Virus record (IMG/VR): IMGVR_UViG_2851976983_000002
Length of the DNA: 29,483 nucleotides
Reading direction: 5' to 3' (one strand)
DNA from: a virus
Taxonomy: Monodnaviria; Loebvirae; Hofneiviricota; Faserviricetes; Tubulavirales; Inoviridae
The first letter of the stretch is position 1. Each line of letters starts with the position of its first letter. The notes below the pieces were generated by a model that saw only the letters and a program-made list of their open reading frames with translations, did no database searches and had not been told where the DNA came from. Below, piece after piece: positions 693-826 of the stretch. Made by a program: the position numbers and the translations under genes.

Positions 693-826
693 AATTTACC
701 TCTATGTCCTTTCAATAGAAGGTGATTATTCCATTTTTTTTACACCCGCATAGCGCATGCGTATTTACAACACGTGTTAAATGTGATTATGATGCGCGCA
801 TGCGGTAAATATATTGCGGTGCAAAC
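693..826. promoter_or_regulatory. Divergent promoter/operator region of variant A (copy at 8963..9096)
   Basis: Two copies of palindrome GCGCATGCG (753..761, 796..804) and a 10-bp perfect palindrome AACACGTGTT (769..778), AT-rich, between divergent genes. Confidence 0.4.

Follow-up and report, generated by a model that had tools for sequence, protein, structure and literature searches.

A predicted RstR-type repressor–operator switch in a tandem filamentous prophage array of Escherichia coli

Introduction

The closest described systems are the immunity region of the cholera phage CTXφ and the operators of ribbon-helix-helix (RHH) repressors. In CTXφ, a small repressor gene, rstR, is divergent from an RstA-type (Rep_trans) gene, and the two are separated by a short intergenic control region. 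Phages that are otherwise similar carry different allelic cassettes of the repressor and the intergenic region, and the prophages form tandem arrays at dif. The characterised RstR-ET, a larger helix-turn-helix (HTH) protein, binds cooperatively to long operators, and the promoter PrstA is co-repressed by LexA. RHH repressors, including P22 Arc and Mnt, MetJ, CopG, omega, PutA, and TraM, have an N-terminal strand with alternating polar and hydrophobic residues, and act at short palindromes that overlap or flank a promoter. A single MetJ dimer reads its met-box, which is an 8-bp palindrome. In E. coli with lux reporters, each of eight rstR alleles represses only its own ig-2 promoter (PMC11509585).

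The locus described here shares the gene arrangement of CTXφ, with a small regulator gene on the minus strand (689–477) and a rightward operon that starts at position 827. The Vibrio ig-2 region aligns with positions 740–810 of the E. coli variant that we call A. We propose, with a probability of roughly 0.7, that positions 693–826 are the immunity switch of variant A, in which a 70-residue RHH protein binds two copies of the palindrome CGCATGCG and represses the rightward replication promoter, without cross-repression between variant A and the neighbouring variant B.

Results

The prophage array and its left modules

The window, which is the whole 29.5-kb stretch of DNA that was analysed, consists of head-to-tail filamentous (inovirus) prophages of E. 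coli of the dif type, arranged in the order A-A-B-B.

1–8270 and 8271–16540: variant A, two identical copies
From about 16541: variant B, one and a half copies with a period of about 8022

The structural, assembly, and secretin genes (A 2588–7864) are approximately 97% identical between A and B. The left modules differ completely, apart from a GC-rich stretch at positions 236–326 in A and 16636–16723 in B. This stretch, GTACCGCACCGCAGC...GGAGGAGGACGCCGACAACGACA, is 87% identical between the variants, and is the sole similarity of the left modules; no Rfam family matches it or any other part of positions 1–19200. Module A encodes a 65-residue protein, a Rep_trans (RstA-like) initiator, and a 113-residue protein on the plus strand, and a 70-residue protein on the minus strand. 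The genes of module B specify a 91-residue HTH protein of the Cro/CI type, an initiator of the G2P type, and a gene-V-like single-stranded DNA-binding protein. The genes and signals that flank the A switch are listed below.

368–391, minus strand: terminator-like hairpin and T-run downstream of the regulator gene
477–689, minus strand: regulator gene, RstR-like, 70 residues from ATG 689, stop at 479–477, predicted RHH protein
698–702, minus strand: Shine-Dalgarno sequence GAGGT, 8 nt 5′ of the regulator ATG
827–1024, plus strand: first gene of the rightward operon, 65 residues, phrog_3104
1024–2220, plus strand: Rep_trans (RstA-like) replication initiator; in the open reading frame list it begins further upstream, with ATG 994

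The 71-residue open reading frame of the regulator is one codon longer and starts with TTG 692. The Rep_trans protein matches PF02486 with an E value of 1.5e-21, and is presumed to be the target of repression.

Module A is 100% identical to prophages of E. coli strains such as 503025 and E24377A, which adjoin hipBA and form arrays of up to five copies. In strain 503025 (NZ_CP025892.1), five tandem A-type units are located beside hipBA, and the coat and Zot genes are frameshifted or split in several of the units according to the RefSeq annotation; members of this array look partly degenerate, or the assembly contains errors. Module B is covered to at least 80% in one of 5426 complete E. coli genomes. 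Our literature searches returned no description of this prophage from E. coli, including the enterotoxigenic type (ETEC).

The unit junctions (8173–8270, 16443–16540, and approximately 24465–24562) contain two dif-like sequences in inverted orientation. The pair is formed by AGTGCGCATAATGTG...TTATGTTGAAA and an imperfect complement, positioned around the GC-rich stem GGCCGCTGCG...CGCAGCGGCC. Judged by its sequence, the junction hairpin looks like a forked attP of the CTXφ type, used for XerCD integration of a single-stranded genome. The A unit also has internal duplications that are about 85% identical (7597–7669 and 7865–7935, 7758–7864 and 8063–8174), located in the noncoding DNA that separates the secretin gene from the attP-like hairpin.

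The regulator is an RstR homologue with a predicted RHH fold

Sequence comparison shows true homology between the A regulator and the "environmental" form of rstR from CTX/pre-CTX phages of Vibrio. Its gene is about 70% identical at the nucleotide level to rstR of the V. cholerae pre-CTX phage (KR063268) and to the CTXφ "environmental RstR" (GQ466611), and is equally close to the gene from V. anguillarum VAIφ. The amino acid identity to the Vibrio RstR proteins is 63–64%. None of the eight alleles cloned for the lux reporter study matches the Vibrio A-type allele by primer sequence, and only the rstR6 reverse primer of that study resembles the 3′ end of the A-type regulator gene (PMC11509585). 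Protein searches identified members of the family in Salmonella, E. albertii, Gilliamella, Providencia, Xenorhabdus, Arsenophonus, and Photorhabdus, none of which has a Pfam domain.

The fold of the regulator was approached by sequence and by modelling. At the Pfam threshold, no family was matched by the regulator on its own, nor by sets of 33 and 72 homologues; the commonest sub-threshold match was the RHH protein ParG, in eight of the 72 family members and with a best E value of 0.019. Searches of PDB sequences with two profiles gave nothing significant (ParG, E value 0.32; TTHA0139, E value 0.29), and hhalign comparisons with CopG and Arc, the sequences of which were entered by hand, were not significant. 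The AF2 monomer model based on a shallow alignment was uninformative, with non-specific structural matches only. An exhaustive profile search provided a deep alignment of 79 diverse representatives, and the AF2 model calculated from it has a pLDDT of 93.6 and comprises an extended N-terminus, a helix of residues 16–33, and a long helix of residues 39–69. This is the strand-helix-helix topology of an RHH monomer, and the regulator, confidently modelled with the deep alignment, is predicted to be an RHH protein. The first-pass annotation, which was made from the sequence alone, had called the regulator RHH-like; this agrees with the predicted fold, but is not backed by a match to a curated RHH family at threshold.

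The literature searches found neither an operator description nor a fold assignment for this class of RstR, and the combination of "RstR" with "ribbon-helix-helix" returned nothing relevant. The results suggest that the regulator represents an RHH repressor family, phrog_2503, that has no Pfam family and whose fold and operators are new to the searched literature. The A regulator shares its predicted fold with the known RHH repressors, but differs from them in falling below every Pfam RHH threshold and in the length of its C-terminal helix.

Palindromes flank a predicted rightward promoter

The elements of the A switch are arranged as follows.

753–761: O-up, GCGCATGCG, with the palindromic core CGCATGCG at 754–761, abutting the -35 region
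762–769, plus strand: TATTTACA, which holds the -35 hexamer TTTACA (764–769) of the rightward replication-operon promoter
769–778: AACACGTGTT, a 10-bp palindrome in the promoter spacer
788–793, plus strand: -10 hexamer TATGAT
796–804: O-down, GCGCATGCG, with the core at 797–804, directly 3′ of the -10 hexamer and over the expected transcription start
805–811: GTAAATA, inverted copy of TATTTAC, kept in enterobacterial relatives and not in Vibrio
9023–9031, 9039–9048, and 9066–9074: O-up, AACACGTGTT, and O-down in the second A copy (+8270)

Both copies of GCGCATGCG and the single AACACGTGTT are positioned exactly where the first-pass annotation had placed them, with a start-to-start spacing of 43. 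The description of GCGCATGCG as a palindrome needs correction, since the 9-mer itself is not palindromic and the palindrome is the 8-mer CGCATGCG. The words had also been reported as absent from the switch of B, and they occur in neither B unit; their only other copies are those of the second A. A further perfect 10-bp palindrome, ATGCGCGCAT, which had been missed, is located at 792–801 and overlaps the -10 hexamer and O-down.

We compared the palindromes with 20,000 dinucleotide-preserving shuffles of positions 693–826 (134 bp). The same 8-bp palindrome occurs twice with P = 0.008, any 9-mer direct repeat with P = 0.057, and any 10-bp palindrome with P = 0.27. These values place the repeated CGCATGCG beyond chance, but not AACACGTGTT alone. 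Five of the 25 8-bp palindromes in the 8270-bp A unit fall within the 134-bp switch, which makes up 1.6% of the unit. Exact CGCATGCG is found at two places per A unit and nowhere else in the unit, and copies with one mismatch have a chance-level frequency in the window.

The rightward promoter, predicted by a promoter scan, is of the sigma-70 type and consists of TTTACA, an 18-bp spacer, and TATGAT, with 10 of 12 positions matching. AACACGTGTT occupies the first half of the spacer. For the leftward regulator promoter, the scan gave a weak candidate only, with a -35 element GTGAGA at 835–830 and a -10 element TATATT at 813–808. By eye, TGGAATAAT (minus strand, 733–725) is a possible extended -10 element; it is present in one of the Salmonella relatives (L033), but not in more distant ones. 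A direct repeat, AAGGTGATTAT (719–729) and AATGTGATTAT (780–790), has its copies 61 bp apart; the second copy supplies the -10 region, and the first falls where the leftward extended -10 element could be. The perfect left half-site for CRP, AAATGTGAT at 780–788, lacks a right half, and a CRP site was rejected. No LexA box (CTGT-N8-ACAG, at most one mismatch) is present in either A unit, and the only matches, at 16724 and 24746, are in B. The fold of the RNA leader is ordinary (z = -0.12).

The switch core is conserved from Vibrio to Enterobacterales

Eleven non-redundant switch regions, taken from the DNA upstream of regulator genes, were aligned. They originate from E. coli, two Salmonella, Xenorhabdus, Arsenophonus, Photorhabdus, Gilliamella, an IMG/VR contig, two V. 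cholerae, and V. anguillarum. The flanks cannot be aligned, whereas the switch core is gap-free across the 11 loci and has the layout GCATGCG-TATTTACA ... -10 ... GYGCATG in register. The element (C)GCATGCG abuts the invariant TATTTACA, which is followed by a weaker nCATGC element and then by the -10 hexamer, the T, A .. A, T positions of which are invariant. Directly after the -10 hexamer comes G-Y-G-Y-GCATG, in which GCATG is invariant in all 11 loci. The O-up pattern G.ATG.G precedes TATTTACA in register in 10 of the 11, the exception being Salmonella L037 with the diverged GGCTGCA. Two E. coli alleles, L041 and L044, retain both O-up and O-down. Per kb, GCATGC occurs 12.9 times in the 120-bp switch windows and 0.16 times in the surrounding 37 kb, an 80-fold difference.

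The alignment register identifies the two GCGCATGCG copies of E. coli as the conserved O-up and O-down of the family. From Vibrio to Enterobacterales, they are conserved in the manner of cis elements that belong to the switch, which agrees with their earlier reading as operators. From its sequence, O-up is proposed to be a binding site for one RHH dimer.

O-down is followed by (T)GTAAATA in the enteric relatives. In Gilliamella (GCA_026536865.1), GATGTAAATA occurs twice in tandem downstream of O-down (GCATGATGTAAATACAGATGATGTAAATAATG), and these tandem copies suggest that the conserved GTAAATA element may itself be a recognised unit.

Sites and regulators change together

The N-terminal segment RxDTTVRINE is invariant in the regulators that adjoin GCATGC sites. 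Homologues from Alteromonadales have DTTIAING, in which R13 is replaced by alanine, and adjoin TTTACATGTAAA elements. More distant homologues have RKSIGIS/T and adjoin TTGCAC repeats.

Two E. coli loci differ from variant A at the switch. Strain RIVM_C037166 (NZ_CP086625.1, 2707381–2708516) carries a third immunity allele next to the same rep and 65-residue genes. Its regulator has only the C-terminal SQEELKKKKAM in common with A and a different N-terminal half (KSYNVPNEKY), and its intergenic region bears no resemblance to that of A and contains GACCTCATG/CATGAGGTC repeats. An allele of this kind points to a recombination breakpoint within the regulator gene. Strain E100341 (NZ_CM128606.1, 2400435–2402482) has an A-type regulator with about 93% amino acid identity. 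In place of the switch, this locus has an extra minus-strand open reading frame and repeats containing GTTAAC, with a "replication endonuclease" gene downstream of them, and the regulator appears to be without GCATGC sites there.

The regulator and its sites are found beside a G2P-type initiator in Gilliamella and beside a "replication endonuclease" gene in E. coli. Because the cassette occurs with different replication genes, the sites follow the regulator and not the replication gene.

The switch of variant B

The corresponding elements of variant B are the following.

16832–17107, minus strand: B regulator, 91 residues, Cro/CI-type HTH (sub-threshold HTH_26, Phage_CI_repr, and HTH_3; phrog_4441 and phrog_638, E value about 1e-18)
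17165–17222: B switch, GTAACAT-type repeats at 17165, 17184, and 17205, before the -35 hexamer, in the spacer, and at the -10 hexamer
17177–17182 and 17201–17206: -35 hexamer TTGACA and -10 hexamer TATAGT of the B replication promoter

The regulator of B is a non-homologous HTH protein beside different repeats, in agreement with different regulator classes in the two variants. The proposal that A has a different operator architecture is correct for the recognition words, none of which are common to B, but not for the layout. Both switches have a divergent repressor, with sites upstream of the -35 hexamer, in the spacer, and at -10/+1. In contrast, the repressor folds, the recognition words, and the replication proteins are all unrelated; B has a G2P-type protein with a gV-like single-stranded DNA-binding protein, whereas A has Rep_trans. 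The same layout, the unrelated words, and the HTH nature of the B repressor make heteroimmunity between A and B plausible, as in CTXφ.

Discussion

A model of the A switch

We consider the A switch to be a real and ordinary repressor–operator switch of the conventional cholera-phage RstR type. It differs from the CTXφ-ET system in that the A protein is a 70-residue predicted RHH protein with 8-bp palindromes as sites, and in that the A switch is without a LexA-box core, although a LexA box is not strictly defining. The E. coli array also differs from CTXφ in swapping the replication gene together with the immunity region.

In the proposed mechanism, one RHH dimer would read each CGCATGCG through a two-stranded ribbon, with the N-terminal strand DTTVRINE placed in the major groove. 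Residues T11, R13, and N15, which alternate with the hydrophobic V12 and I14, are the likely base contacts. The replacement of R13 by alanine alongside the change from G-CATG-C to A-CATG-T in Alteromonadales would fit an arginine–guanine contact. Occupancy of O-down would block the start site and exclude RNA polymerase. In a lysogen, the replication and virion genes would be kept off, and an incoming phage of the same type would be blocked. The centres of O-up and O-down, 43 bp apart, would be separated by about four helical turns and lie on the same face of the DNA. O-up may contribute to cooperativity through the long C-terminal helix, or to autoregulation of the regulator's own promoter. 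Its centre near -43 is unusual for simple steric repression, and it could serve the autoregulation of the leftward promoter instead. The two strong sites of A are not adjacent, in contrast to those of MetJ and omega, and cooperative tandem binding is not evident.

Alternative readings of the palindromes

The first-pass annotation gave AACACGTGTT the same weight as the two GCGCATGCG copies, and so implied that the regulator has a third functional operator. AACACGTGTT is a perfect 10-bp palindrome, and its place in the promoter spacer is taken in most relatives by a CATGC element. Nevertheless, 27% of the shuffles contain a 10-bp palindrome by chance alone, and the core of AACACGTGTT, CACGTG, differs from GCATGC. 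The element is not conserved either: E. coli AST240, which is 98.8% identical over the region, has AACACGCAT at this position, read as AACACGCATT, and another E. coli allele has TGATGCCTTA, with O-up and O-down intact in both, whereas the relatives have AACATGC, GCATGC, TCATGC, or, as in Gilliamella, no element. Because AACACGTGTT is lineage-specific and polymorphic, its status as an operator is doubtful, and we regard a third operator as unlikely; AACACGTGTT would be at best an auxiliary, lineage-specific site.

The conserved sites might instead be read by a host factor or by another phage protein, such as the 65-residue product. Strain E100341 retains the regulator without the sites, and GTAAATA/TATTTAC is an additional conserved inverted element without an assigned reader. 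However, the sites travel with the regulator gene through three different replication modules, change when the N-terminal strand of the regulator changes, and are retained in Vibrio relatives without the 65-residue gene, which makes a different reader improbable. It is less probable still that O-up and O-down are not double-stranded operators but form a hairpin in single-stranded DNA, with a role in, for example, packaging or the initiation of the minus strand. Being palindromic, the copies are mutually complementary (11 nt, 91%), and the predicted single-stranded fold of positions 740–820 uses an O-up/O-down stem (-16.5 kcal/mol, z = -1.84), but nine of 200 shuffles fold equally well. In the relatives, O-up and O-down differ from each other (for example GCGCATGCG and GTGTGCATGG) without compensatory changes, so that only a core of 5–6 bp could pair. 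Furthermore, the sites keep the same distances from the -35 and -10 hexamers, as operators do, and a separate dif-like forked hairpin is present elsewhere (8173–8270). The least credible explanation is that the palindromes are functionless chance features of a GC-patchy intergenic region: the motifs are short and their one-mismatch copies are no more frequent than by chance, but the repetition of the 8-bp palindrome, its in-register conservation across genera in spite of unalignable flanks, and the enrichment of GCATGC in the switch windows all argue against it.

A mobile immunity cassette

With the regulator retained as the probable reader of O-up and O-down, we incline slightly towards a broader interpretation, in which the phrog_2503 RHH family, with the "environmental" rstR allele as one of its members, constitutes together with the GCATGC operators a self-contained mobile immunity cassette that acquires new types by swapping only the N-terminal strand and the operator words. 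If this is true, the cassette has moved among inoviruses of Vibrio, Enterobacterales, and the bee-gut Gilliamella, and among three unrelated replication modules, and the pairing of R13 with G-CATG-C as opposed to A13 with A-CATG-T would be an example of such a swap.

The proposed reading of CGCATGCG by an RHH strand provides an operator model for filamentous-phage repressors that include an rstR allele circulating among V. cholerae CTX/pre-CTX prophages. It would also explain how two related prophages are maintained side by side in one dif array of ETEC-type E. coli, where A and B have a common structural backbone but unrelated modules for immunity and replication.
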